The notes: generated by a model not told the origin, from the sequence alone. DNA of 64,000 bases from Chloroflexota bacterium (GCA_021786385.1 JAJYNJ010000080.1:195-64194); one strand, 5' to 3'; counted from the first letter of the stretch, positions 10,160 through 44,709 are shown. A program made the numbers and translations.

Positions 10160-10963
10160 GTGGTGCTCCTCGGCCTCAAGCTCGTCCTGACGCCCCTGCT
10201 GATCGGCGGGGCCACGGTCGGCGCGCGGCGGTGGGGCCCGCTGATCGGTGGCTGGCTGGTCTCGTTGCCGCTCACCTCGGGGCCGGTGGCCCTCTTCCTC
10301 GCGCTCGACCGCGGCACCTCCTTCGCCGCGACCGCCGCAGACGCGTCGCTCGTGGGCAACGTCGCCATCATCGCCTACTGCGTCGCCTACGCGACGGTCG
10401 CCCGGCGTGCCGGGTGGCGCGCGGCCATCATGGCGGCCAGCGTCGGCTGGTTGGTGGCGGCGCTGGCCCTGCAACCGGTGCTGGCGCTTCCGGTCGGCCT
10501 CCTCTTCCTGCTGGTTGCCGCGGTCTGGGTCCTCGCGCTACAGGTCATGCCGGCCGGGACGGCGCGCCCCTCCGACGTGCCGCCGCCCCGCTGGGATCTG
10601 TCGCTGCGCATCGTCGTGGGCACCGCCGTGGTCGTCGGCTTGACCGCCGCCGCGCCCTACCTCGGTTCAACCGTCAGCGGGCTCCTGGCGATGCTGCCGG
10701 TGATCGCCACGGTCCTCGCGATCTTCACCCATCGCCGGGACGGCGCCGGCACCGCGATCGGCGTGCTGCGGGGCATCCTGACCGGACTCGTCGGAACGGC
10801 GGCGTTCCTGGCGGTCGTCAGCGCCTCGATCGTGCGCCTCGGTGTCGCGCTCTCGTTCGCGGCCGCGATCGCGACCGTGGTCGCGGTCCAGCTGCTGGCC
10901 CTGACGGCCCTGCGCCGCCAGGGCGCCACGGGCGTCGGGCAGGCTGGCGCCGGTAGGGCCTGA
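10160..10963 (+). CDS. Hypothetical polytopic membrane protein
   Basis: 267 aa with 7-8 strongly hydrophobic helical segments. Its last ~300 nt overlap, antisense, the 3' extension of the ydeP-like ORF. Confidence 0.5.
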   Translation: MVLLGLKLVLTPLLIGGATVGARRWGPLIGGWLVSLPLTSGPVALFLALDRGTSFAATAADASLVGNVAIIAYCVAYATVARRAGWRAAIMAASVGWLVAALALQPVLALPVGLLFLLVAAVWVLALQVMPAGTARPSDVPPPRWDLSLRIVVGTAVVVGLTAAAPYLGSTVSGLLAMLPVIATVLAIFTHRRDGAGTAIGVLRGILTGLVGTAAFLAVVSASIVRLGVALSFAAAIATVVAVQLLALTALRRQGATGVGQAGAGRA

Positions 10964-13294
10964 CGCCGCCCCGGCGGCTACGGAACCGTGCACCGCCGCT
11001 GGCAGGATCTCGACCGTCGCGTTGTAGTCGGGGACCAACGCGACCGGGTCGCGGCGGCCCGGTCTGATCAGCGGGTTCGCCTCGGGAAAGAACATCTGCA
11101 CGTTGCGCGGCCGGATCGCTGCAAGCCTGACGTGTGCCTGCACCTCGCCATCCGTGGAGCGCACCCGCACCGGATCGCCTTCGCGGAGCGCCAGCGCCGA
11201 CGCGTCCTCGCGCGAGATGAAGAGCGCGTCGCGCATGGCGCCGGTCAGCGGATCGCGTTGCTTGAACACCATCGAGTTGAACTGCTTGCCGCGCCGGGTC
11301 GAGAGCAGGAAGTGTCCATCCGGGATCGCCAGCTCGGGCGGCTCGACCGGATCGAAGTGCGCCTTGCCGTCCGGCGTCGGGAAGACCCAGCCGTCACAGA
11401 GGCGCTCGCCGCCCCACTGCACTTGGTCGCCGGCCCTGCGCAGCGTCTCGATCCCCCGGTACGCCGGTATCACCCGCGCGATCTCGTCGCGGATCTGCTG
11501 CCCGCTGCGGAACTCGACCAGGTGTGCCCGCTCCGGGTCGACCCTGTGGGCCAGATCGACGAAGATCTCCCACTCGCTGCGCGCCTCGCCGACCCGAGGG
11601 CCCGGGATGCGCGGGCTGAACAGGACCCGTCGCTCGGTCGTCGTTTCCGTGCCTCCGCCGGGCTGTTCGTAGCGCGTCCGTGCCGGCAGCAGCACCACCG
11701 CCTCGGCCGGGTCGACCAGCATCTGGGTGGTGACCACGATGTCCTGATGGACGCGCAGCGGCACCCGCGCGAGCGCCTCGTGGACCGCCGCCGGATCGGG
11801 CAGGACGTCGAGGAAGTTGCCGCCGCTCGAGTAGAGGACGTCCAGCTCGCCACGGCCCGCCGCTTCGATCATCTCGGCCGCCGACAGTCCCCGTTCGCCG
11901 CGCACCGCGAAGCCGTACTGGGCGGAGAGTCTCGCGGCGCTCTCCGGCGTGATCGGGATACCGCCCGGCAGCACGGTCGCGTAGCAGCCCATCTCGGCGC
12001 CGCCCTGTACCCCAGAGTGGCCGCGCATCGGCATCAACCCGGCCCCCACGCGCCCGACGTTACCGCGGGCCAGTGCCAGGTTCACCATCGCCCGCACGTT
12101 GTCGCTCCCGCAGACGTGCTGCGTGATGCCCATCGCCCAGACGATCACCGCCGATCCGGCCGCGGCGTAGAGCCGCGCGAACTGCGCCATCTGCGCCCGG
12201 GTCGCGCCGCTCGCGCGCTCCAGGTCGTCGAACGACTGGCGGTCCAGTGAGGCGCGCAGCTCCTCGAAGCCGCTCGCGTGCTCCGCAATGAACCGCTCGT
12301 CGACGCCACCTTCGGCGATGAGGAGCTTGAGGACGCCGTTGATGAACGCGACGTCGCCGCCCGTGTGCACGGGGAACCAGGCATCGCTCATCTTGGTGCC
12401 GAAGATCGCGCTCTCGACGTTGGAGGGCACCCAGTAGCGCTCCATGCCGGGCTCGCGGAGCGGGTTGACAACGATGACCTTGGTCCCGCCCTTGCGTGCC
12501 AGGTAGAGGTACTTCATGAAGACCGGCTGCGCGTTCGCCACGTCGGCCCCGAAGATCACGACCAGGTCGCTCTGCAGGACGTCGGTGTAGGAGATCGTGG
12601 TGGCGGCTACGCCGAGCGCCTTCTTGAGCCCTGCCGTGGAGGGCGAATGGCAGACTCGGGCCGCATTGTCGACGTTGTTCGTGCCGAGGAAGCGCGCGAC
12701 CTTCTGCGCGACGTAGTAGACCTCGTTGGTGATGCCGCGGCTGGTCAGGTAGAACGCGATCCGGTCGGGATCGGCGCGGCGGATGCGGCCCGCGATCAGC
12801 TCGAGCGCCTCATCCCAGGTGCTGCGGCGGAAGCCCGGCTCCCCCTGCCGCCGCACCATCGGGTAGGCCAGCCGCCCCATGTCCCGCAGCTCCGCCCCGC
12901 TCATCGCGCGCAGCGCCGCGACGTCCGCCAGGCGGCCGTGGTCGAACGGGCGCGCGGTGTTGTACTTGAGCAGGTTCAGGCGGGTCGTGCAGAGATGCAC
13001 GCCGTCGATCGTCCAGTCGTGGAAGCCGCTGACGCCGAGGGCGCAGCCATCGCAGACGCCGTTGCGCAGGATGCGCAGCGCGTACGGGAGGGCGTGCCGG
13101 TTCTCCCAAATGGTCTGGGCGATCTCGAGATAGTGGTTCGGTTTCTGCTCGCCGATCCCGTTCGGCTTCCAGCCCGCCCAGAGTTCCGGGGCGACGAGTC
13201 GGGGCCGCTTGGGCCCGCGCGCCCGGGGGGCCTGTGCCGGTCGCTGCCCGCCTTCCGGCATCCCCTCTGCTGCCGACGATTGGTGGATGGCCAT
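10667..13294 (-). CDS. ydeP: FdhF/YdeP-family molybdopterin oxidoreductase (formate dehydrogenase H-like)
   Basis: MopB-type molybdoenzyme with an N-terminal Cys cluster (CDGCALG, C…C) and the YdeP-like C-terminus PEANPLIRPGRRDPVALVPDYNATVEIL. Its ATG at 13294 overlaps the fdhD stop. The final ~95 codons before the stop at 10667 are low-complexity, charged sequence, so the true 3' end is doubtful. Confidence 0.8.
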   Translation of the reverse strand: MAIHQSSAAEGMPEGGQRPAQAPRARGPKRPRLVAPELWAGWKPNGIGEQKPNHYLEIAQTIWENRHALPYALRILRNGVCDGCALGVSGFHDWTIDGVHLCTTRLNLLKYNTARPFDHGRLADVAALRAMSGAELRDMGRLAYPMVRRQGEPGFRRSTWDEALELIAGRIRRADPDRIAFYLTSRGITNEVYYVAQKVARFLGTNNVDNAARVCHSPSTAGLKKALGVAATTISYTDVLQSDLVVIFGADVANAQPVFMKYLYLARKGGTKVIVVNPLREPGMERYWVPSNVESAIFGTKMSDAWFPVHTGGDVAFINGVLKLLIAEGGVDERFIAEHASGFEELRASLDRQSFDDLERASGATRAQMAQFARLYAAAGSAVIVWAMGITQHVCGSDNVRAMVNLALARGNVGRVGAGLMPMRGHSGVQGGAEMGCYATVLPGGIPITPESAARLSAQYGFAVRGERGLSAAEMIEAAGRGELDVLYSSGGNFLDVLPDPAAVHEALARVPLRVHQDIVVTTQMLVDPAEAVVLLPARTRYEQPGGGTETTTERRVLFSPRIPGPRVGEARSEWEIFVDLAHRVDPERAHLVEFRSGQQIRDEIARVIPAYRGIETLRRAGDQVQWGGERLCDGWVFPTPDGKAHFDPVEPPELAIPDGHFLLSTRRGKQFNSMVFKQRDPLTGAMRDALFISREDASALALREGDPVRVRSTDGEVQAHVRLAAIRPRNVQMFFPEANPLIRPGRRDPVALVPDYNATVEILPAAVHGSVAAGAASGPTGASLPDARGALAAQGRQGQQLDRDHGRDRGRERERDTEAHDRGADDRQERRRSDESGQDAPQHADRGAGAVPAMGEDREDRGDHRQHRQEPADG

Positions 13295-13295
13295 G

Positions 13296-14144
13296 TCAGA
13301 CCTCCAGCTCGATCCGCTCTGGGTGGGCGTACACGTTGAAGCCATCGCCTCGGAGGAAGCCGACCAGCGTCATGCCCAGCCGTGCGGCGGACTCGGCCGC
13401 CAGATCGGTGGGCGCGGAGATCGCGCAGGTCACGGGGATCCCGGCCATCGCGGCCTTTTGCACGATCTCGAAACTGATCCGCCCAGAGACCAGCAAGAGC
13501 GATCGGCGCAGCGGCAGGCGACCGGCCAGCAGCATCGCTCCCACCAGTTTGTCGACGGCGTTGTGGCGCCCGACGTCCTCGCGTGCGGCGATCAGGCGCC
13601 CCGAGGTGTCGAAGAGCCCGGCCGCGTGCAGGCCGCCGGTGGCCTCGAACGCGCGCTGGGCGGCGCGCAGGGCCAGCGGCAGCCGCAGCACCGCCTCCCG
13701 CGGGACGGTGGGGCCGGCAGGGAGCGGCTCGCAACGCAGCACCACCGCGTCGAGACAGGCCTTGCCGCAGATGCCGCAGCTCGCGGTGGCCACGAAGTTG
13801 CGGCCGGAGACCGTGTCGGCATCGAACGCCCGGGTGAGCCGCACGGTGACGACGTTGTCGGGCCGTCCGACCGTGCCCGGATCGCCGAGCTCGATCCCGA
13901 CGATCTCGCCAGGGGCGATCAGGCCCTCGGTGCAGAGGAAACCCGCGGCCAGTTCTTCGTCGTGCCCCGGCGTGCGCATGGTGACCGCCACGGAGACCGC
14001 GCACTGACCGGGACCCGCGACGCGGATCTCCATCGGCTCCTCGCCGGCGAGCGCGTCTGGGCGTGAGGAGACTGCGGTACCGCGGACGGCGAGCGTCCGC
14101 GTCGCGACGACGTCCCGGCTCGGCGAGGAAAGCTTGGCGGACAC
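13296..14144 (-). CDS. fdhD: Formate dehydrogenase accessory sulfurtransferase FdhD
   Basis: FdhD family with conserved GRHNA and the CGICG cysteine motif. It is translationally coupled to the downstream ydeP-like gene. Confidence 0.85.
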   Translation of the reverse strand: MSAKLSSPSRDVVATRTLAVRGTAVSSRPDALAGEEPMEIRVAGPGQCAVSVAVTMRTPGHDEELAAGFLCTEGLIAPGEIVGIELGDPGTVGRPDNVVTVRLTRAFDADTVSGRNFVATASCGICGKACLDAVVLRCEPLPAGPTVPREAVLRLPLALRAAQRAFEATGGLHAAGLFDTSGRLIAAREDVGRHNAVDKLVGAMLLAGRLPLRRSLLLVSGRISFEIVQKAAMAGIPVTCAISAPTDLAAESAARLGMTLVGFLRGDGFNVYAHPERIELEV

Positions 14145-14385
14145 CGCGCTGCCTCGGGATGCTTGGCCTGAGCGGGCAATCGGCTCAGCGGCACCGTCGC
14201 CCGATCTGGGGGCGAGCGGTGCGCCCGACTATAGCCCATCAGGCTCGGCTGTGCCGTCGGGCGCGATGGTGGGCGCTCGCCATGGCCGGCGGCGCAGGGC
14301 GCGTGCGGTGGGCGTGCCGCGCCCGAGGCGCCACAATATCCTGGAGCGGTCCGGTACCGCGCGGTCGACGGAGGTGGTGCGCTCG

Positions 14386-14694
14386 ATGGACGATCGGTCG
14401 GAGCCGGTGAACGGTCTCAGCCTGGACGCCTGGCTGGCGCTGCTGCAGGAGGTCCCAGGACTCGCCGCGCTCGAGGTCAGCCGCGACGAGCAGCGTGCGC
14501 TGCTCGACTTGACCCGCGTGGCCGCGCATCGCAGCGCGCGCGCGGCGGCCCCCATCACGGCGTTTCTGGTCGGTCTGGCGCTCGCATCGACCGAACCCGC
14601 GCAGCGGGCCGCCCGGATCCGCCACTTCACGGCCCTGCTCGAGTCGTCCGCCGTGGACGTGCCTGCCGCGCCGCCGGACACGGGCGGCGGCTGA
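14386..14694 (+). CDS. Small hypothetical protein (~102 aa), divergent from fdhD
   Basis: ATG at 14386 preceded by GGAGGTGGTG. The product is alanine-rich and helical (MDDRSEPVNGLSLDAWLALLQEVPGL…) with no recognisable catalytic motif. Confidence 0.45.
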   Translation: MDDRSEPVNGLSLDAWLALLQEVPGLAALEVSRDEQRALLDLTRVAAHRSARAAAPITAFLVGLALASTEPAQRAARIRHFTALLESSAVDVPAAPPDTGGG

Positions 14695-14721: not shown

Positions 14722-15504
14722 GTGGCGCCGTCTGCCGTGATCGAGCTGCGCTGTTACGGGCCCCTGAACGACTTCCTGCCCCTGGCCCTCCGGGGGCGCT
14801 CGTTCCGGCGTCGGCTCTTCGGCACGCCGGCCGTCAAGGACGTGATCGAAGCCGCCGGGATCCCGCATCCGGAGGTCGAGGTCGTGCTCGTGAACGGCAC
14901 GGCTGTCCCGTTCGGGCACCGGCTCGCGCCCGGTGATCGGGTCGCCGTCTACCCGCCCTTCCGTTCGCTCGACCTGGACGCCGTGGTGCGCGCGGACCCC
15001 CGGCGTGTGACAGGCGGGGAGCCGCAGTTCGTGCTCGACGGGCACCTCGGCCGGCTCGCCGCGTACCTGCGGTTGGCCGGTTTCGATACGCTCTACCGGC
15101 GCGATGCCGAGGACGACGGACTGGCGCGTCTCGCGGCGGATGGACGCATCCTGCTCACCCGCGACATCGGGCTACTGAAGCGGTCCGCGGTCGTCCGGGG
15201 CGCCTTCGTGCGATCGGATCGCCCGGCAGACCAGCTCGTCGAAACCTTCCGCCGGTTCGATCTGGCCACCGCGGTCCGCCCCTTCGCGCGCTGCCTGCGC
15301 TGCAATCGGCTTCTCGAGCCGGTGGAGCGGGAGGCCGTGCGCGATCTCGTCCCGACCAGGGTCTACCGCGAACAGGCCGCCTTCCGGCGCTGCCCGCAGT
15401 GCGGAGGGTTGTTCTGGCGGGGCTCGCACGTCGCGCGCATGGCGCGGCTGCTCGAGCGGACGCTGCGGGCCGCCGCGGGGCCGGATTGCAAGCCGTTGCA
15501 GTAG
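14722..15504 (+). CDS. Mut7-C RNase-domain protein with N-terminal ubiquitin/MoaD-like domain and C-terminal zinc ribbon
   Basis: N-terminal MoaD/ThiS-like segment (IELRCYGPLNDFL…VLVNG) followed by a PIN-like Mut7-C core. A C-terminal C-x2-C…C-x2-C ribbon is present (CLRCN…CPQCG). Confidence 0.7.
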   Translation: MAPSAVIELRCYGPLNDFLPLALRGRSFRRRLFGTPAVKDVIEAAGIPHPEVEVVLVNGTAVPFGHRLAPGDRVAVYPPFRSLDLDAVVRADPRRVTGGEPQFVLDGHLGRLAAYLRLAGFDTLYRRDAEDDGLARLAADGRILLTRDIGLLKRSAVVRGAFVRSDRPADQLVETFRRFDLATAVRPFARCLRCNRLLEPVEREAVRDLVPTRVYREQAAFRRCPQCGGLFWRGSHVARMARLLERTLRAAAGPDCKPLQ

Positions 15505-15554
15505 CGGTATGATGCGCCCACTCGACACAATCGCAGCAGCGAGGTCCGCGTCCC

Positions 15555-16661
15555 GTGTCTACTCTCTGGCGAGTCGTCTCCCGTCCGAGCCCGCTGCGCA
15601 CGAGGATCGTCGCGATCTACGGCGGCCTGGTCGGGTTCACGATCTTGTGCCTCGCCCTCCTCCTCACGGTCGGGCTCCCATACCCGCAGCTGGTGGGCGC
15701 GGGCGTCCTGGCCTACACGCTCGGCCTGCGCCACGCCTTCGACGCCGACCACATCGCCGCCATCGACAACACCACCCGTAAGCTGATGCAGGACGGGCAA
15801 CGACCGGTGGCGGTGGGCCTCTTCTTCTCGCTCGGCCACTCGACGATCGTGGTGCTCCTCTCGGTGCTGCTGGCGATCTCGGCCTCGGTCGCGAGCGACA
15901 TCCCGACGCTCCAGAGCATCGGCGGTCTGATTGGGACGGCTGTCTCGGCGACCTTCCTGCTCGTGATCGGCCTGATCAACCTCGTCGTGCTGGTCGACAT
16001 CTACCGGCTGTTCCGGCAGGTCTCGGCGGGCGCCGGCTACAGCGATCAGTCGCTCGAGGAGCTGCTCCAGAACCGCGGCGTGTTGGCGCGCATCTTCCGG
16101 CCGATGCTGCGGCTGGTGCGCAAGAGTTGGCACATGTACCCGGTCGGGTTTCTCTTCGGACTCGGGTTCGATACCGCGAGCGAAGTGGCCCTGCTGGGGT
16201 TGGCGGCGACCGCCGGCGGCGAGCGGATTCCGATCGCGTTCATCCTGATCCTGCCGGCCCTCTTCGCGGCGGGCATGATGACGATGGACTCGACCGACCA
16301 GATCCTGATGCTGGGCGCCTACGGCTGGGCGTTCCTGCGGCCGATCCGCAAGCTGTACTACAACCTCACGATCACTTTCATCTCGGTCGTCATCGCTTTC
16401 GTCATCGGCGGCATCGAGGTACTCAGCATCATCGGCGACCAGCTCGGTCTGCGCGGCGGCATCTGGAGCTTCGTCGCGAACCTCGACTTCGCGGTGGTGG
16501 GCGTCGTGATCGTCGGGATCTTCCTCGTGAGCTGGGTCGGCTCGACGCTGATCTACCGGCTCAAGGGCTACGATGCCCTGGGGGGACCTGCGGGCCCAGA
16601 ACCGGCGGAGACCGCGGTCCCGGAGCCGGCCGAGGCGGGGCCGGCCGAGTCGGCCGCGTAG
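15555..16661 (+). CDS. High-affinity nickel/cobalt permease (NiCoT; HoxN/NixA family)
   Basis: NiCoT signature in TM2 (LGLRHAFDADHIAAIDN = HX4DH). It has 8 TMs and the GxxFDxxxE-like motif (GLGFDTASEVA). Confidence 0.85.
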   Translation: MSTLWRVVSRPSPLRTRIVAIYGGLVGFTILCLALLLTVGLPYPQLVGAGVLAYTLGLRHAFDADHIAAIDNTTRKLMQDGQRPVAVGLFFSLGHSTIVVLLSVLLAISASVASDIPTLQSIGGLIGTAVSATFLLVIGLINLVVLVDIYRLFRQVSAGAGYSDQSLEELLQNRGVLARIFRPMLRLVRKSWHMYPVGFLFGLGFDTASEVALLGLAATAGGERIPIAFILILPALFAAGMMTMDSTDQILMLGAYGWAFLRPIRKLYYNLTITFISVVIAFVIGGIEVLSIIGDQLGLRGGIWSFVANLDFAVVGVVIVGIFLVSWVGSTLIYRLKGYDALGGPAGPEPAETAVPEPAEAGPAESAA

Positions 16662-16797
16662 CAGCGGTCGCGTGGTGCAGCTCGCGTCGTCTCCGCCACA
16701 AGGGAGGGATCGCTTGCCACGGCGTACAGAAGGGCCCCACGCCGAGCGCCATCCGCGGGGGGCGCCGGCCGGCCCGTGGGAAGGGCTCGCCGAACGG

Positions 16798-17238
16798 ATG
16801 CGCGCCAGCGGCCTGCGCTGGACGCCCCAGCGCCGGGCGCTCGTCGCGGTGCTCCGTGAGACGAACGGCCACGTGTCGGCAGCCGAGTTGATCGAACGCT
16901 GTCGAGCGCGCGACCCGGCCACGACCCCTTCGACCGTCTATCGCACGCTCGACGTGCTCGAGGTGCTGGGCCTCGTGCGCCACGGCCATGGGATCGACGG
17001 CCGCGGCGAGTACCACGTGCTGCCGCAGGCCGAGCATGGACATCTGTATTGTCGTGAGTGCGGCGCGACGCGCGAGATCTCCGACGCCGACGCGGCCGCG
17101 CTGGTGGCCCAGTTCGAGACGCGCCATGGGTTCGCGGTGGACCTCTCGCACGTGACGATCGTGGGGCGCTGCCGATCATGTGGGGAGGCGGCGCGCCGCG
17201 TCCCGGGCTCGGCGGCCACGGCCGACCGTCAGCCGTAG
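16798..17238 (+). CDS. Fur-family metal-responsive transcriptional regulator (candidate nickel regulator Nur)
   Basis: Fur fold: a winged helix (TPQRRALVAVLRETNGHVSAAEL…TVYRTLDVLE) followed by a metal-binding H/C-rich domain (HGHGIDGRGEYHV…HGHLYCRECG…CRSCG). It sits immediately downstream of the NiCoT permease. An alternative TTG start at 16714 is preceded by GGGAGGG. Confidence 0.75.
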   Translation: MRASGLRWTPQRRALVAVLRETNGHVSAAELIERCRARDPATTPSTVYRTLDVLEVLGLVRHGHGIDGRGEYHVLPQAEHGHLYCRECGATREISDADAAALVAQFETRHGFAVDLSHVTIVGRCRSCGEAARRVPGSAATADRQP

Positions 17239-18074
17239 CGGGCGTCGCGCTCGCGCAGCGCGGCCACCAGCTGCGCCTCGGTGGGCGTGCTGCCCAGTCC
17301 CAGGGCCCCGCCGACGACAGCCGCCGGCGGTGGGTCGAGGTGCGTCGAGCGGAGGACCTCCCAGGCCGCGGGGGCGAAGACCTCGTCTGGCGTGCCGTCC
17401 GCCACGATGGCGCCCTCGCGCATCACCACGACCCGCTCGAAGGTCTCCGCCACGAAGCGCATATCGTGGCTCGTGGCGAGCACCGTCCGGCCCTCGTCCG
17501 CGAGACGCCGCACGACCTCCTCGACCAGGCCGAGCCCGCGCCCATCCTGCCCGGTCGTCGGTTCGTCGAGCGCGACGATCGGCGTGCGCATGGCGAGGAT
17601 CGCGGCCAGGGCGACCAGCTTGCGCCGCGAGAACCCGAGGTTGAACGGGTTCGCGTGCTCGAGGCCACGCAGCCCGACCGCCTCGAGCGCCTCCATCACC
17701 GCACTGGCCAGGTCCGCGCCGGTCAGGCCCAGGTTGCGGGGACCGAAGGCGACCTCGTCCGCCACCTGTTCCTCGAAGATCTGCAGGTCGGGGTTCTGGA
17801 AGAGGAGGCCGACCTGCCGGGCAATCCGCTCGACCGGCACCCCCGCGGTCTCGCGTCCACGCACGAGCACCCGGCCGGCGCTGGGGCGCAGCAGTCCGTT
17901 CAGATGGCGCAGCAAGGTCGACTTGCCGCTGCCGTTCTGGCCGACGATCGCCACCCGCCCGCCCTCGGGGACGGCCAGGCAGACGTCGCGGAGTGCCCAG
18001 GTCCCGTCAGGGTAGACGAACGAGACGCCTTCGAGCTCGATGGCGTGGCTCGGCCGGCTGCCCCCCGCACTCAC
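17229..18074 (-). CDS. ECF/cobalt-type ABC transporter ATP-binding protein (EcfA/CbiO-like)
   Basis: Walker A GQNGSGKST, signature motif, Walker B ALDEPT. The start overlaps the upstream ATPase stop (ATGA). Confidence 0.85.
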   Translation of the reverse strand: MSAGGSRPSHAIELEGVSFVYPDGTWALRDVCLAVPEGGRVAIVGQNGSGKSTLLRHLNGLLRPSAGRVLVRGRETAGVPVERIARQVGLLFQNPDLQIFEEQVADEVAFGPRNLGLTGADLASAVMEALEAVGLRGLEHANPFNLGFSRRKLVALAAILAMRTPIVALDEPTTGQDGRGLGLVEEVVRRLADEGRTVLATSHDMRFVAETFERVVVMREGAIVADGTPDEVFAPAAWEVLRSTHLDPPPAAVVGGALGLGSTPTEAQLVAALRERDARYG

Positions 18075-18919
18075 CGCCCCGCCTCCGCGTCGAGGCCGCC
18101 CGGTCCGGGGCGGAGTGCGGCCACCACCGCCGCCTCGTCGAAGCGCACACCGGCGGCGCGCGCAGCCCGGGCGATGCGGATCCGCGAGGGGGGCAGGATC
18201 GCGAGCGCCTCGAGCAGCCGGTCGGCGAAGACCGTCTCGGCCGGCCCGTCGCGCACGACCGTGCCGTGGTCCATCAGGAGCAGCCGCTCGCAGAGCCCGT
18301 CGAGCAGGTCGAGCTTGTGTTCGATCACCAGGAGCGCGGTGCCGGTCGCGGCGAGGGCGTGGAGAGCCGCGCCGACGAGCCGCGTGCCGGCCGGATCGAG
18401 CTGCGCGGTCGGCTCGTCGAGGACGAGGTGGGCCGGATGCATCGCGAGCAGCGAGGCGATCGCGACCAGCTGGGCCTCGCCGCCGGACAGCCGGCGTGGA
18501 TCGCGCAATGCCAGGTCCCCGATGGCGAGCCGCCCGAGGGTCTCCTCCACCCGCGCGACGATCTCGGCACGGTCGAGTCCCAGATTCATGGGCCCCAGCG
18601 CCACCTCCTCGAACACGGTGCTGCTGACCTGCGAAATCTGCGTCGCCGGGTTCTGGAAGACGTAGCCGACCCGCTGGGCCACCTCGTACCCGGGACGCCC
18701 GGTCATGCGCTCGCCGTCGACCTCCAGATACCCGTCGAACGCGCCCCCCACCACGGCGGGCGCCATGCCTGCGGCGAGCAGGCCCAGCGTGGACTTGCCC
18801 GCCTCGTTCGGCCCGGTCAGCCCGACGATCTCCCCGTGGCGGATCTCGACGGCCACGTCGTGCACGGCGGGCTCCCGCGCGGCCGGATAGCGGTAGCTGC
18901 GACAGACGAGGCGCAACAT
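18071..18919 (-). CDS. ECF/cobalt-type ABC transporter ATP-binding protein (second ATPase, EcfA')
   Basis: Walker A GPNEAGKST, LSGGE signature, Walker B LDEPT. Its ATG overlaps the stop of the T-component gene (TGATG). Confidence 0.85.
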   Translation of the reverse strand: MLRLVCRSYRYPAAREPAVHDVAVEIRHGEIVGLTGPNEAGKSTLGLLAAGMAPAVVGGAFDGYLEVDGERMTGRPGYEVAQRVGYVFQNPATQISQVSSTVFEEVALGPMNLGLDRAEIVARVEETLGRLAIGDLALRDPRRLSGGEAQLVAIASLLAMHPAHLVLDEPTAQLDPAGTRLVGAALHALAATGTALLVIEHKLDLLDGLCERLLLMDHGTVVRDGPAETVFADRLLEALAILPPSRIRIARAARAAGVRFDEAAVVAALRPGPGGLDAEAGR

Positions 18920-19725
18920 CAGGCGAGCCAGCCGCCCAGGCGGGCGGCGATCACCAGCAGCACCGCGCCGAGCAGGGCGGCCCGGAAGCGCCGCTCCAGC
19001 GGTGGATCGGGCGGCCACCAGAGGAGGGTGCGCCGTCCCGGTCGGCCGCTCGCGCGCGATTCCATCGCCAAACTGCCCTCGCTCCAATCGTTGATCGCCG
19101 AAACGAGCGTCGGGAAGACGAGTGGCAGGCGCGCGCGGAAGGCGCCCCACGGGCCCCGGCCGATGGCCAGACCGCGGGCGCGCTGCGCGGCCGTGATCTG
19201 GCCCACACGGTCGCGCACCGCCGGTGCTAGGCCGAGCAGCCCGAGCACGCCGAAGACGAGGCCATGGGGGACGCCCCGGCGCTCCAAGTCGAGCGCCATC
19301 GCGCGGCGGTCCGTGGTCCAGGCGAAGAGCGCCGCCGCTGCGGTCACGGCAGCGACCCGCAACAGCACGTCGAGCGCGACCGCGGCTGCGTTCCATGGCG
19401 CGCTGCCGGCCGCCACGCCGGCGCTGCGGGACCCGAGCGCGAAGCGCTCGAGGCCGGCGAGCACCGCCAGCGGAGCGCTCACCTGTGCGCTGAGGAGCGA
19501 GATACGACGCACCAGTCGAGCCCAGACGACGGGCCCCGCCAGCAGCGCCAGCGCGGCGAGCGGGCCCGTCGCGCCCGGGACGACGAGCGCGACGACCAGT
19601 GCGACGCCGCTCAGGGTGAGTTTCGTGGCCGGGTTGCAGGCGTGATAGCGGGTCGCGGCCGGCGGACGCAGGCGCGCTAGGCTCCCGGGCGCTTCAGCCG
19701 CCCCGGCCGGGGGCTCGGGCGGCAT
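18919..19725 (-). CDS. ECF transporter transmembrane (T) component (CbiQ/EcfT family)
   Basis: Polytopic membrane protein with the CbiQ-like ARG motif region (…AQRARGLAIGRGP…). Its ATG overlaps the cbiO stop (TGATG). Confidence 0.75.
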   Translation of the reverse strand: MPPEPPAGAAEAPGSLARLRPPAATRYHACNPATKLTLSGVALVVALVVPGATGPLAALALLAGPVVWARLVRRISLLSAQVSAPLAVLAGLERFALGSRSAGVAAGSAPWNAAAVALDVLLRVAAVTAAAALFAWTTDRRAMALDLERRGVPHGLVFGVLGLLGLAPAVRDRVGQITAAQRARGLAIGRGPWGAFRARLPLVFPTLVSAINDWSEGSLAMESRASGRPGRRTLLWWPPDPPLERRFRAALLGAVLLVIAARLGGWLA

Positions 19726-20702
19726 CAATCGGTGTGGGTGGCCGGGTCGCCAGCCGGACCGGTGGTCGACCATGCGAACGACGCCGTGGTCGACGTTTCA
19801 GGCCGTGCCGCCGTCGACCCGTCGCCCGACCCGTCGCCCGACCCGTCGCCCGGCCCGTCGTCCGATGGCGGGCGTCGCTCGGGCGCCTGGTCCTCGTGGT
19901 GGCCGATGTCGTGTGCGTGCGCATGGAGCGCGCTGCCGTGCTGGTGCAGGTGCTCGTGGATCAGGTTCGCTCGGATCAACAGGGCCCAGTCGTCCAGGAT
20001 CGCCGCCGGCGCGCCGTCCGCGAGGATGCGCCGCTCCTCGCCGAGCACGATCACCCGGTCGGCGATGAGGGGCACGATATCGAGTTCGTGCGTGGCGGTG
20101 ATGAGGGTGCGGCCGGCCTCGCCAAGACGGCGGATCAGGTTGACGAGCACCCACTTGGTGCGCGGATCGAGCGAGGCCGTCGGTTCGTCGAGCAGGACGA
20201 CCTGCGGCTCGAGCGAGAGGACCGACGCGATGGCGGCCCGCTTCTGCTCGCCGCCAGACAGCTCGAAGGGGGCCCGTTGGGCCAGGTGCGCAATCCCCAT
20301 CATGGCCAACGCTTCGTCGCAGCGACGCTTCACCTCCGCCGCCGGCAGCCCCAGCTGTAGCGGCCCGAAGGCGACGTCGTCGAAGACGGTGGCGCTGAAG
20401 AGCTGGATGTCGGGGTCCTGGAAGACGAGGCCGACCGCGCGGTGAAATGTGAAGGCATCCTCGCCGTCGACGACCGAGGCGATCTCGCGGCCCAATGCCC
20501 ACATGCTGCCCTGCTGCGGTGCGATGATGCCGTCGAGGAGCTTGAGCAAGGTCGACTTGCCGCTGCCGTTCGCGCCGAGCAGCACGACCCGCTCGCCCTC
20601 GCGGATCTCGAGATCGACGCCATCGAGCGCGACGTGGTCGCCGCTGTAGACGTATCGGACGCCGCGCAGCGCGTAGAGCAGCCGGCCCTCGGCCGTGCTC
20701 AC
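19725..20702 (-). CDS. cbiO: Cobalt/nickel ECF transporter ATP-binding protein CbiO with a C-terminal His-rich and GDGS-repeat tail
   Basis: GTG start overlapping the cbiQ stop (GTGA). Walker A GANGSGKST, signature LSGGEQKR, Walker B LLDEPT. A tail HEHLHQHGSALHAHAHDIGHHED…GDGSGDGSGDGS follows. Confidence 0.8.
   Translation of the reverse strand: MSTAEGRLLYALRGVRYVYSGDHVALDGVDLEIREGERVVLLGANGSGKSTLLKLLDGIIAPQQGSMWALGREIASVVDGEDAFTFHRAVGLVFQDPDIQLFSATVFDDVAFGPLQLGLPAAEVKRRCDEALAMMGIAHLAQRAPFELSGGEQKRAAIASVLSLEPQVVLLDEPTASLDPRTKWVLVNLIRRLGEAGRTLITATHELDIVPLIADRVIVLGEERRILADGAPAAILDDWALLIRANLIHEHLHQHGSALHAHAHDIGHHEDQAPERRPPSDDGPGDGSGDGSGDGSTAARPETSTTASFAWSTTGPAGDPATHTD
19813..19860. repeat. Tandem 12-nt repeats (GACCCGTCGCCC x ~3-4) encoding the GDGS repeats in the CbiO tail
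   Basis: Read directly on the plus strand: …gacccgtcgcccgacccgtcgcccgacccgtcgcccggcccgtcg…. Confidence 0.5.
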
Positions 20703-21580
20703 GGCAGGAATGGACCCGCCAGAACGCCCACGGCGGCCACCGTCAGCGAACCCGCCAGGACCGCCCAGTCGGTCGTCCGCATGCGGTAGGTGCTGTACGC
20801 GCGGAGCTCGCCGGTGAAGCCGCGCGCCAGCATCGCCGCATACACATCGTTGCTCATCTTGAAGGCTCGATTCACCAGGGCTCCCATCGTGCCACTGATC
20901 CAGCGTCGCTGCTCCGCGCCGCTCGTCCGCCCCACGACGCGGCTCTTGCGGGCCTGCAGCACCCCGTTGACGGTGTGCAGGAAGAGGAAGATGTAGCGGT
21001 ACGTCATCGAGAGGATCAGCACGAAGACCTGCGGCACGTGCAGCGCCCGCAGGCTCTTGAGCAGATCGGCCCACGGGGTCGTCATCACGAGCAGCAACGC
21101 CAGCGAGACGCTGACGCCGACACGCGCCACGAAGATGACCCCGCCGACCACGCCCGGGAGGGACGGTGCAACGTGTAGCGGCCCCGCCGGGAGATCGAAG
21201 AGGCGCGGCCCCGGCACCAGGAAGAGGGCCGGGATCACGACGATCCCGGCCACCAACGGGATGCCCAACCAGACGCGTTTGACGAAGTACCGATAGGGCA
21301 CGTGGCTGGCGCCCGCGGCGGCCAGCACCACGAGGTAGAGGCCCGCCAGGACCGTGATCGATCCGCTCAGACTCGCCGCCAGCACCAAGGCCAGGAAGAT
21401 GGCGAGCTTGGCCCGCGGATCCCGTGCCTGCAGGAACCCGCGCTCCCGGGCGTGCTGCTCGGTGAAGACGGCGTGTTCGATCGACGCGGTGATTCCGGCG
21501 AGGGTCTGCTCGAGCCAGCCGATCCGACCCCGCCGGCGCTCGCGCCCAGCTGCCGCCGCGCCGGGCGCCGGGCCGCTCAC
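20699..21580 (-). CDS. cbiQ: Cobalt ECF transporter T component CbiQ
   Basis: GTG start overlapping the cbiMN stop (GTGA). The CbiQ/EcfT family membrane protein carries the conserved C-terminal ARG-type motifs (ARGFTGE). Confidence 0.8.
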   Translation of the reverse strand: MSGPAPGAAAAGRERRRGRIGWLEQTLAGITASIEHAVFTEQHARERGFLQARDPRAKLAIFLALVLAASLSGSITVLAGLYLVVLAAAGASHVPYRYFVKRVWLGIPLVAGIVVIPALFLVPGPRLFDLPAGPLHVAPSLPGVVGGVIFVARVGVSVSLALLLVMTTPWADLLKSLRALHVPQVFVLILSMTYRYIFLFLHTVNGVLQARKSRVVGRTSGAEQRRWISGTMGALVNRAFKMSNDVYAAMLARGFTGELRAYSTYRMRTTDWAVLAGSLTVAAVGVLAGPFLP

Positions 21581-22860: not shown

Positions 22861-22894
22861 CGCGTCCTCCCCGCCAGTGCTGCATGCACCGGCT

Positions 22895-22912
22895 GTTGCA
22901 ATACGTTGCAAT
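22895..22912. promoter_or_regulatory. Candidate Fur/Nur-type operator: two TTGCAA palindromic hexamers 10 bp apart (GTTGCAATACGTTGCAAT) in the cbiM / K-channel divergent intergenic region
   Basis: Read directly: …ggctgTTGCAAtacgTTGCAAtgagc… about 35-50 nt upstream of the cbiM GTG. TTGCAA half-sites match the published Nur-box half-site. The coordinates are within a few nt. Confidence 0.35.
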
Positions 22913-22983
22913 GAGCTGTCGGGATTGTAGCCGGCGCGCGGGCGGTTGGCGAGCGTCTGCGGCCGGGCCATACAATCGCCGCG

Positions 22984-24024
22984 ATGACCGACCACGCCGA
23001 ATCGGCCGCGTTACTGCGCCGGCGCACGCCGCTCGGCGCGCGCTTTGGGACGTCACACATTCGGCTCTGGCTCGTGCTCGTCGCGGCCGCCGTGGCCGTG
23101 GGCACCCTCGGCTACGTGGCCATCGAAGGCTGGTCACCGTTCGACGCGCTCTACATGACGGTCATCACCGTCACCACGGTCGGTTTCGGCGAGGTGCATC
23201 CGCTGAGTGCGGCCGGCCGGACATGGACGATGCTTGTGGCCGCCGGGGGCGTGGGGCTCCTCTTCGGGTTCGTCGGCGTGGTGGCCGAATCACTCTTCAC
23301 CGCGGCGACCAGCGGAGAGCGGGAGGCACGGCGGATGGCGCGTCGGGTAGAGGCCCTGCGAGGGCACTTCGTGCTGTGCGGCTACGGCCGCGTCGGTTCG
23401 ACGGTCGCGCACGAGCTGCGTCACGACGGCGAAGCCGTGGTGGTGATCGACGTGCTACCCGAGTCGCTGGACCGCGCACGCGCGGAGGGGTTCCCGGTCG
23501 TCGCCGGCGACGCGACCGATGACGCGACCCTGCACGCCGCCGGGATCGAGCGCGCCCGCGGCCTGATCACGACGGTCGACTCGGACGCCAACAACGTCTA
23601 TGTGATCCTCTCGGCGCGGGCGATCAACCCCGACCTCTTCGTGGTCGGCCGGGCGAACGCCGCGGGGGCGGAGGCCAAACTGATGCAGGCCGGCGCGGAC
23701 CGCGTGGTCTCGCCCTACACGATGGCCGGCCGCCGGATCGCCGGGCTGGCGTTGCGGCCGCGGGTCGTGGAGTACATCGACGCGGCCCTTTCGCACGGCG
23801 AGCTCGCGTTTTCGCTCGAGGAGGTGACCGCCCGCGAGGGCGATTCGATCGCCGGCAGCACCGTGGGCGAGCTGCGCGACCGCGGCATCTTCACGCTGGC
23901 CATCGTGCGGGAGGCGGGTGGCTACGCGGCCAATCCGGCGCCGGAACGGCGGATCGTGGCGGGCGAGACGCTGATCGTCTCGGGGAGCGCCGCGACGCTC
24001 GCCGCGCTGCGCGGCGGGGCGTAA
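22984..24024 (+). CDS. Potassium channel with RCK (TrkA-N/TrkA-C) gating domains (MthK/Kch-like)
   Basis: Two TMs flank the selectivity filter TVGFGE. A Rossmann RCK domain follows (VLCGYGRVGSTVA) with a C-terminal TrkA-C. Confidence 0.8.
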   Translation: MTDHAESAALLRRRTPLGARFGTSHIRLWLVLVAAAVAVGTLGYVAIEGWSPFDALYMTVITVTTVGFGEVHPLSAAGRTWTMLVAAGGVGLLFGFVGVVAESLFTAATSGEREARRMARRVEALRGHFVLCGYGRVGSTVAHELRHDGEAVVVIDVLPESLDRARAEGFPVVAGDATDDATLHAAGIERARGLITTVDSDANNVYVILSARAINPDLFVVGRANAAGAEAKLMQAGADRVVSPYTMAGRRIAGLALRPRVVEYIDAALSHGELAFSLEEVTAREGDSIAGSTVGELRDRGIFTLAIVREAGGYAANPAPERRIVAGETLIVSGSAATLAALRGGA

Positions 24025-43671: not shown

Positions 43672-44709
43672 GTGCAGGGTCTTGGTCAGTATTTTCGGTC
43701 CCGCGGCTCGACCCCGGAGATCGTGATCTTCGCGGGCAAAGGCGGCTTGGGGAAGACGACGTCCTCGGCGGCGCTGGCCTGGCACATGAGCCAGGTCGAG
43801 GGGAAGAAGACGCTCTGTTTCTCTACCGATCCGCAGGCCTCGCTCTCGGACATTTTCGAGGCGGACATCTTTGGCCGGGGTGTGGTCGAGCTGCGCCCCA
43901 ACCTGTTCGTGGTCGAGATCGACGCCGACCGGCGCGTCCACGACTACCAGGAGCAGGTGCGCGCCAAGATCCGCGACATGTACGGACTGGACCGCGTGCC
44001 CGAGGAGATCGACGAATACATCGAGTCGACCTCGGCTGAACCGGCGATGTACGAGTCGGCCACGTACGACGCGATGGCCGAGCTGGTGGCGGCGCGCGAG
44101 TACGAGCTCTACATCTTCGACATGCCGCCCTTTGGCCATGGCGTCCGCATGGTCGCGATGGCCGACATCCTCTCGAAGTGGGTCGAGAAGATCACCGAGG
44201 CACGCGAAAAGGTGGCCGAGTACGAGGCGGTCGCGGCGACGCTCAAGGGCGGCGGCAAGGAACGCACCGAGGACGCGGTGCTGCACGAGCTGCTCGACAT
44301 CAAGCGCCAAGTCACCAACTTCACCGACCTCATCACGGACCGCCGCCGCACGGCGTTCTTCATGGTGCTGATCCCCGAACAGATGGCGATCGTGGACACC
44401 GAGCGCGCGCTCCGCATGTTCGGCGAGCTCCACATCGAGATGAGCGGGCTGATCGTCAACCAGGTCTACCCGTCCGACCTGCTCGCCGACGCGGAGCTAC
44501 CCGAGTTCCTGCGCAATCGGATCGGGATGCAACAGGGGAACCTGGTCGAGATCAATCGACGGTTCGGCAGCAAGGTGGTGGCGGCGATGCCGATGTTCCC
44601 CCGCGAACCGAAGGGTCTGGAGATGATCCAGGCTGCGGCGCAGGTGCTGATGGATCCGCCGGAGCCGGTGCGCCGGATCTTCGAGGCGGCGCCGGGGGCG
44701 GCACGATGA
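43672..44709 (+). CDS. ArsA/Get3-family P-loop ATPase (BagA-like, short paralog)
   Basis: Deviant Walker A GKGGLGKTT. It has ArsA-family architecture but no metalloid-binding Cys triad. 345 aa, the same size as mycobacterial Rv3679-type proteins. Confidence 0.8.
   Translation: MQGLGQYFRSRGSTPEIVIFAGKGGLGKTTSSAALAWHMSQVEGKKTLCFSTDPQASLSDIFEADIFGRGVVELRPNLFVVEIDADRRVHDYQEQVRAKIRDMYGLDRVPEEIDEYIESTSAEPAMYESATYDAMAELVAAREYELYIFDMPPFGHGVRMVAMADILSKWVEKITEAREKVAEYEAVAATLKGGGKERTEDAVLHELLDIKRQVTNFTDLITDRRRTAFFMVLIPEQMAIVDTERALRMFGELHIEMSGLIVNQVYPSDLLADAELPEFLRNRIGMQQGNLVEINRRFGSKVVAAMPMFPREPKGLEMIQAAAQVLMDPPEPVRRIFEAAPGAAR

Follow-up and report, generated by a model that had tools for sequence, protein, structure and literature searches.

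In Streptomyces coelicolor, Nur is a Ni(II)-activated repressor whose DNase I footprints at sodF, sodF2, nikA and nikM yielded the box tTGCaa-N5-ttGCAA, a 17-bp element of 6-5-6 architecture (PMC2691836; PMC3919588). One of these targets, nikM, encodes a cbiM-type ECF importer, and both the nikA and the nikM promoters are bound by Nur in a Ni-dependent manner (PMC2691836). The study that solved the structure of this protein (3EYY) tied the long spacer of its box to an S1-S2 sheet that is fixed by the Ni-site, and reported that DNA binding requires the histidines H70, H72 and H126, whose conservation is restricted to Nur orthologues, and that an H86A mutant still binds DNA (PMC2691836). A literature search for Nur outside Streptomyces or for a box of 6-4-6 architecture (curated regulon databases lay outside this search) returned nothing. 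Classical Fur, Zur and PerR boxes (7-1-7 or 9-1-9) would share with the element described below a dimeric Fur-family repressor, a palindrome overlapping the promoter and a metal co-repressor, but are AT-rich and arranged around a single central base, in contrast to the two GC-centred hexamers and four non-conserved bases found here. NikR operators and B12 riboswitches, which usually regulate nik/cbi ECF transporters, follow a comparable logic, uptake being shut down once enough metal or cofactor is present. NikR belongs to the ribbon-helix-helix proteins and has a different type of operator, GTATGA-N16-TCATAC in E. coli. No cobalamin riboswitch was found at the locus analysed here.

The window, i.e. 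the whole 64-kb stretch of Chloroflexota DNA that was analysed (64,000 nucleotides), contains a TTGCAA-N4-TTGCAA repeat which we judge very likely to be the operator of a Nur-like regulator (16714-17238) that would control both the cbiM ECF operon and nicT-nur (Table 1). Half-site and target class match those of Nur, as nikM is a cbiM-type importer, and the spacer differs.

Table 1. Features of the candidate nickel-uptake locus (positions are those of the 64-kb window).
Feature	Position	Strand	Details
Predicted nicT promoter, TTGCAA-16-TATGAT	15486-15513	+	Sole promoter-like site (0.0 expected)
Candidate operator 2 (nicT-nur box), TTGCAAgccgTTGCAG	15486-15501	.	1 mismatch; 20.2 bits
nicT, HoxN/NixA-family Ni/Co permease	15555-16661	+	Pfam NicO 3e-101; TIGR00802 393 vs cut-off 333
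Nur-like Fur-family regulator, 174 aa	16714-17238	+	Pfam FUR; TTG start preceded by GGGAGGG
Two further ABC ATPases	17229-18074 and 18071-18919	-	Pfam; L089/L090 gene calls
Second CbiQ-like T component	18919-19725	-	Pfam; L089/L090 gene calls
cbiO (ABC ATPase)	19725-20702	-	Pfam ABC_tran; translation; L090 gene calls
cbiQ (ECF T component)	20699-21580	-	Pfam CbiQ; 4-nt overlap with cbiM; coordinates from synteny, L090 gene calls
cbiM/nikM-type ECF S component, 427 aa	21577-22860	-	Pfam CbiM 1e-53; NCBIfam NF008873 289.8 vs cut-off 225
Candidate operator 1 (cbiM box), TTGCAAtacgTTGCAA	22896-22911	.	Perfect 6-4-6 palindromic core
Predicted cbiM promoter, TCGCCA-17-TACAAT	22952-22924	-	-10 at 22929-22924; sole promoter-like site in the region (0.0 expected)
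K-channel gene	start ATG 22984	+	Ion_trans_2, TrkA_N and TrkA_C domains

The repeat lies in the intergenic region of exactly 123 bp (22861-22983) that separates the divergently oriented cbiM and K-channel genes. There gTTGCAAtacgTTGCAAtg is read at 22895-22913, and its core, TTGCAA-N4-TTGCAA, becomes 22893-22914 once the conserved flanks are added (operator 1). The two TTGCAA copies that a preliminary description of this DNA had placed about 35-50 nt upstream of the cbiM GTG (22860, minus strand) are present, with 35 nt between start codon and box and the box itself 36-51 nt upstream. That description also read the element as a 9-bp direct repeat (GTTGCAAT), which did not hold up: in L089, one of three syntenic near-relatives of the window (L089, L090 and L091), the flanks are altered (GTTGCAAcataTTGCAAtg) but both palindromic hexamers are intact. 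The direct repeat is incidental; the unit conserved across relatives is an inverted repeat, TRTTGCAA-N4-TTGCAAYA, including flanking positions that had not been used for site selection. Across the approximately 160 bp of the cbiM promoter region the window and L089 differ by seven substitutions, three of them in the 4-bp spacer (tacg to cata) and none in the hexamers. On the nicT side of L089, the single substitution upstream of the start codon is located in the spacer of operator 2. Relative to the predicted cbiM start, operator 1 would extend from about +5 to +22 and cover the start region, the position of this start being a promoter-based prediction.

Allowing at most two mismatches, 0.14 matches to the N4 pattern were expected in the 64-kb window versus two seen, a number reached by none of 100 shuffles (0/100, same threshold). 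The hexamer TTGCAA itself occurs four times in the 64 kb, three of these inside the two boxes. The window was also scored with a position weight matrix trained exclusively on the sites of other loci, i.e. without its own, which gave 29.6 bits for operator 1 and 20.2 bits for operator 2, compared with shuffle maxima of 8.9 ± 2.4 bits on average and 18.2 bits at the highest. No site other than these two rose above background in the scan of the 64 kb. The third-best match (12.5 bits), at 44514 inside an ArsA-like gene, was considered as an extra regulon site and rejected as being within background.

Operator 2 (15483-15504 with its flanks) is located 53 nt upstream of the nicT GTG and covers the -35 and the spacer of the predicted nicT promoter. 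It falls inside the last six codons (DCKPLQ and stop) of an upstream gene with Ub-Mut7C/Mut7-C RNase domains, so that the C-terminus of this protein and the putative regulator site use the same bases. A Fur-family gene that had been noted about 5 kb away beside nicT was indeed found directly after nicT, on the plus strand, beginning 52 nt behind it and 5.6 kb from the cbiM repeat. Its TTG start at 16714 agrees with an exact 174-aa database protein (P0001) and with the N-terminal 'PW..L.ER' block of its relatives. The gap between nicT and the regulator gene contains no promoter-like or terminator-like site, and nicT-nur is therefore likely to be one operon under operator 2. Both boxes sit at the predicted promoters of the two Ni/Co uptake systems of the window, and the linkage of operator, regulator and targets is backed by strong comparative evidence. 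The arrangement differs from that in S. coelicolor, since in the window the regulator gene and its targets are linked, with probable autoregulation through the nicT-nur operon, whereas the Streptomyces nur locus (L093/L094) was found without Ni genes and without boxes; nor is any sodF/sodN link visible in the window.

The six genes of the cbiM operon (cbiM, cbiQ, cbiO, the second CbiQ-like gene and the two further ABC ATPase genes) overlap or abut according to the gene calls in L089 and L090, and the last three are probably co-transcribed with cbiO in a single operon. The predicted CbiM starts with a GTG and has the N-terminus MHIPDGYLSP, and a cbiM gene of identical length (427 aa) was called in L090. 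Its C-terminal part is a membrane extension of about 200 aa, in the place where relatives carry a separate or fused PDGLE domain. The CbiO C-terminal tail is His-rich (HEHLHQHGSALHAHAHDIGHHED) and followed by a low-complexity stretch rich in Gly, Asp and Ser; it may represent a metal-binding tail on the ATPase, and a comparable His-rich stretch is found in the CbiO of L005. With two T components and three ABC ATPases in one tightly packed string of six genes, the operon has an unusual, doubled energising module. The region that precedes the nickel locus (10667-14694) encodes an FdhF-like molybdopterin oxidoreductase, FdhD and a DUF6457 protein, in a synteny that is kept in L089-L091.

The regulator scored 83.3 bits against Pfam PF01475 (cut-off 23.1) and remained below every cut-off of the NCBIfam Fur, Zur, PerR and Irr models. 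Its best solved relative is 3EYY, the S. coelicolor Nur (E 7.5e-22, 80.8 bits, 128 residues aligned), with M. tuberculosis FurB/Zur (68.9 bits) and the Furs behind, while its database relatives are named merely 'Fur family' and come from Chloroflexota or Limnocylindrales. In addition to the Fur-family fold and the TTGCAA half-site, the protein shares with S. coelicolor Nur an identical recognition helix (STVYRTL), and the M-site residues H33, H88 and H90, the DNA contacts Y56 and R57 and four cysteines are kept in the window protein as well as in some 30 relatives. The Ni-site residues H70, H72 and H126 are likewise retained in the window regulator and in all relatives of 50-72% identity. The proposal that the Fur-like protein is a Nur candidate thus stands, its nearest solved structure being that of Nur and the Nur-specific Ni-site histidines being kept. 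The differences are a host that appears to belong to the Chloroflexota and not to the actinomycetes, an overall identity to S. coelicolor Nur of 37%, a non-conserved D37 and an Ala in place of the M-site residue H86 (Nur numbering). Despite this replacement the M-site is probably intact, because the H86A mutant of Nur still binds DNA.

The intact Ni-site triad favours nickel over cobalt as the effector. We consider it unlikely that the box is a genuine Nur-like operator whose protein responds to cobalt or another metal, or activates instead of repressing. Such a reading could draw on the fact that CbiM- and NiCoT-type transporters carry Ni or Co, that the best NCBIfam name obtained is 'cobalt transporter CbiM' and NicT lies below the equivalog cut-off, and that a distant cbiM-linked clade has the same box without H70 and H72, which would imply a different metal sensing. 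The crystallographic Ni-site was possibly affected by crystallisation conditions (review PMC7055735), and neither Ni enzymes, which could anchor the nickel assignment, nor B12 genes were found among the 30 annotated ORFs of the window. However, the present clade retains every one of the three histidines that Nur requires at its Ni-site, no B12 riboswitches or B12 genes were found near these operons, and positions over the transcription start and over the -35 are typical of repression.

The TTGCAA motif, recognised in the preliminary description as the half-site of Streptomyces Nur boxes, agrees with the footprinted S. coelicolor box (PMC2691836). The reading of the repeat as a Nur/Fur-family operator was upheld as regards half-site, regulator and second site, but as an element that would work like a Nur box without being a canonical one, because the 5-bp spacer is not found: the spacing is N4 (a 10-bp period) against the published N5 (an 11-bp period), and the window contains no match to the canonical 6-5-6 Nur box at up to two mismatches. 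For comparison, actinomycete NikMN loci were reached with a Nonomuraea NikMN-like protein as bridge, which added Planobispora, Actinomadura, Streptosporangium and Planomonospora. (The record PLSDB NZ_LT559118.1, our L096, is labelled 'Nonomuraea gerenzanensis plasmid I', but with 11.85 Mb and 10 annotated features it is evidently a chromosome.) The promoters of these five genera resemble that of the window in that a conserved inverted repeat precedes an ECF operon; in the five genera the repeat is TGCC...TGCA, the operon is of the CbiM+PDGLE type, and a -10-like TAAAGT lies beside the repeat. They differ from it in having no adjacent regulator gene and an 11-bp period, the invariant TGCC...TGCA pair being 11 columns apart as in a 6-5-6 box (TGC-N8-TGCA in 5/5 promoters and TGC-N7-TGCA in 0/5). 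In the Chloroflexota-type set the 10-bp form is present and the 11-bp form never (best mismatches 0-1 for N4 versus 3-5 for N5). Two metagenomic loci (L067 and L069) possess clean N5 boxes beside a divergent Nur-like gene and cbiM. Both geometries therefore occur in nature, and the window belongs to the 10-bp class.

The preliminary description would have counted an absence of the motif from other metal genes against its own reading, and this objection is not borne out. Apart from the second copy at the nicT-nur promoter, it recurs at cbiM and/or at a Nur-like gene in dozens of related loci. A genome scan based on the regulator retrieved Chloroflexota MAGs (Limnocylindrales and similar; 61-70% identity), of which five loci (L002-L006) each contain exactly one N4 site (at most two mismatches) and no N5 site. 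The aligned start of the Nur-like gene follows approximately 80-125 bp downstream of this N4 site. In L005 a divergent cbiM-PDGLE-cbiQ-cbiO operon lies on the other side of the box. In the other four (L002, 1521<-; L003, 9857<-; L004, 9889<-; L006, 4225<-) the Nur-like gene is divergent from a gene for a His-rich membrane protein with a GLRHGxDxDHIAAI-type motif. Among these His-rich partners the protein of L002 alone scores above the Pfam NicO cut-off (42.3 bits), and the remaining ones are sub-threshold or unmatched; if they export metal, simple Ni-dependent repression at these four loci would be puzzling.

A metagenome scan with CbiM gave 80 loci (54-83% identity), 79 of which contain the cbiM start and were scored. 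At up to two mismatches, the N4 motif had 49 matches in the regions reaching up to 250 nt upstream of cbiM (18.9 kb in all) versus 19 in the 390 kb elsewhere, and the corresponding numbers upstream of cbiM for spacers N2, N3, N5, N6 and N7 were 1, 0, 9, 3 and 9 (79 loci). A box positive by the weight matrix was present within 300 nt upstream of cbiM in 48/76 loci, with three matches in 212 kb of downstream DNA. About one-third of the cbiM relatives lack a recognisable box. The megaplasmid cbiM of a cultured member of the Chloroflexota, Thermomicrobium roseum (L095, 593040; 58% identical), has a 222-nt upstream region that contains no TTGCAA box, and it has no adjacent Fur gene or Rfam riboswitch. 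Cobalamin riboswitches were not found in 20 box-negative cbiM loci either, so that they do not separate Co-type from Ni-type loci. Within 16 aligned cbiM leaders the order is fixed (a -10-like TAGACT, the box, a conserved leader block, the Shine-Dalgarno sequence and the start codon), with TAGACT about 10 nt upstream of the box in 14/16; its equivalent in the window is TACAAT. In three of the more distant cbiM-linked loci (L059, 3895-3926; L061, 3805-3836; L062, 3479-3510) two 6-4-6 boxes abut, for example TTGCAAttctTTGCAG directly followed by CTGCAAggaaTAGCAA, in a 32-bp array upstream of a Nur-like gene, which suggests binding by two dimers.

It is very improbable that the hexamers are plain core promoter elements of the TTGACA-like -35 kind (in divergent or tandem promoters), or a chance AT-rich repeat in a GC-rich intergenic region, with no dedicated regulator. 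TTGCAA does equal TTGACA at 4/6 positions, and the first hexamer at nicT coincides with the predicted -35. Yet conservation extends to both hexamers, to their exact 10-bp register and to the palindromic flanks, although the distance between box and start codon ranges from 19 to 177 nt among the loci, and at cbiM the box is placed downstream of the conserved -10. The 49 N4 matches upstream of cbiM against 0-9 at the other spacings, the shuffle statistics and the association of the box with a specific regulator gene also speak against chance or a mere promoter element.

An RNA element in the cbiM 5' UTR, in which a 6-bp stem with a 4-nt loop would control translation or stability or act as a riboswitch-like sensor, is again highly doubtful. 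A palindrome with a 4-nt spacer is able to fold as a hairpin, and the cbiM box, situated between the predicted -10 and the Shine-Dalgarno sequence and hence downstream of the -10, would be transcribed. However, the 67 unique sites depart from TTGCAA at 102 positions, of which 91 disrupt the pairing and only eight are compensated. It is therefore the sequence that is conserved and not the stem, as expected of DNA bound by a protein rather than of an RNA hairpin. The cbiM leader is no more stable than its shuffles (z = -0.48) and its minimum-energy fold lacks the box hairpin, while Rfam (14.5-24.5 kb, E up to 1) returned no family besides a chance CRISPR-DR match. The box moreover coincides with part of the predicted -35 at nicT and at the nur genes of relatives, where it would fall outside the transcript.

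By tblastn, a Nur-like gene adjoins cbiM in most loci, being either divergent and separated from cbiM by the box, or co-directional and immediately upstream. Such an adjacent upstream gene was found in 33/48 box-positive versus 4/16 box-negative loci (p=0.003). That another transcription factor binds the box, with the Nur-like gene as a bystander, is scarcely credible on present evidence. Regulator and operator are paired by co-occurrence only, 15/48 box-positive loci are devoid of an adjacent upstream Nur-like gene, and in some box-positive loci the DNA covered contains no Nur-like gene at all, but several of the 15 carry one at the far end of the operon, as does the window. Moreover, the half-site is the footprinted Nur half-site, the recognition helix is identical to that of Nur, and the loci examined contain no recurring regulator gene besides the Nur-like one.

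The K-channel gene, with operator 1 about 60-75 bp upstream of its start, is not counted in the putative regulon, nothing having been found that ties it to the latter. None of the K-channel gene, the Mut7-C gene and the HoxN-type NicT gene recurs as a partner of the box in the related loci. The K-channel gene lacks a Shine-Dalgarno sequence and has a TACAAT of its own that ends 7 nt short of the ATG (22971-22986), an arrangement suggestive of a leaderless transcript. The putative -35 of this gene overlaps that of cbiM, which is on the other strand.

For the Nur-like operator that we prefer, we infer repression and the effector metal by analogy with Nur, and the transcription starts from the sequence. 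As in S. coelicolor, the targets would include a cbiM/nikM-type ECF nickel importer and the operators would overlap core promoter elements. When nickel is sufficient, a metal-loaded dimer would occupy each box, placing one STVYRTL helix on each TTGCAA hexamer, 10 bp apart. At cbiM the occupied box would cover the transcription start, immediately behind the predicted -10, and at nicT it would cover the -35 and spacer. From these positions the bound repressor would exclude or trap RNA polymerase, and both importers would be shut off. As nur lies behind nicT, its own synthesis would also be switched off, amounting to negative autoregulation. When nickel is scarce, the apo-protein would leave and both importers would be derepressed.

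Beyond the close relatives, a second cbiM-adjacent Fur-family clade that is 28-40% identical to the window regulator was found in L060-L064, L067-L069, L073, L074, L078, L080, L081, L084 and L086. In this distant clade H70 and H72 are absent (position 70 is E or K, position 72 mostly D or E), and H88/H90, mostly H126 and the TTGCAA box are kept, often as two abutting 6-4-6 units. The regulators of L067 and L069 have S126 and a 2-residue insertion before the recognition helix, and their boxes are of the N5 type. The retention of the box in this clade suggests either that the box predates the canonical Ni-site or that the mode of metal sensing has been remodelled. On balance we lean towards the view that Nur-type regulators are not confined to actinomycetes but make up a broad, un-annotated family that accompanies cbiM/nikM operons in Chloroflexota and in further uncultured lineages, with an operator shifted by 1 bp (6-4-6 versus 6-5-6) and a sister clade without H70/H72 that would sense metal otherwise, possibly a different metal.

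If this is true, the dimer geometry would have been re-set on an unchanged recognition helix, and the 10-bp and 11-bp periods recognised by an identical helix would constitute a natural experiment on half-site spacing in the Fur family. The present clade keeps the Ni-site yet uses the shorter spacer, despite the link between Ni-site and long spacer made for Nur. The box may further aid the annotation of Ni-type cbiM/nikM operons and of generic 'Fur family' genes in metagenomes. Nur, so far characterised only in Streptomyces coelicolor, would be extended well beyond the actinomycetes, and a poorly known, mostly uncultured lineage of the Chloroflexota would gain a testable nickel-uptake regulon comprising two operators, two transporters and their regulator.
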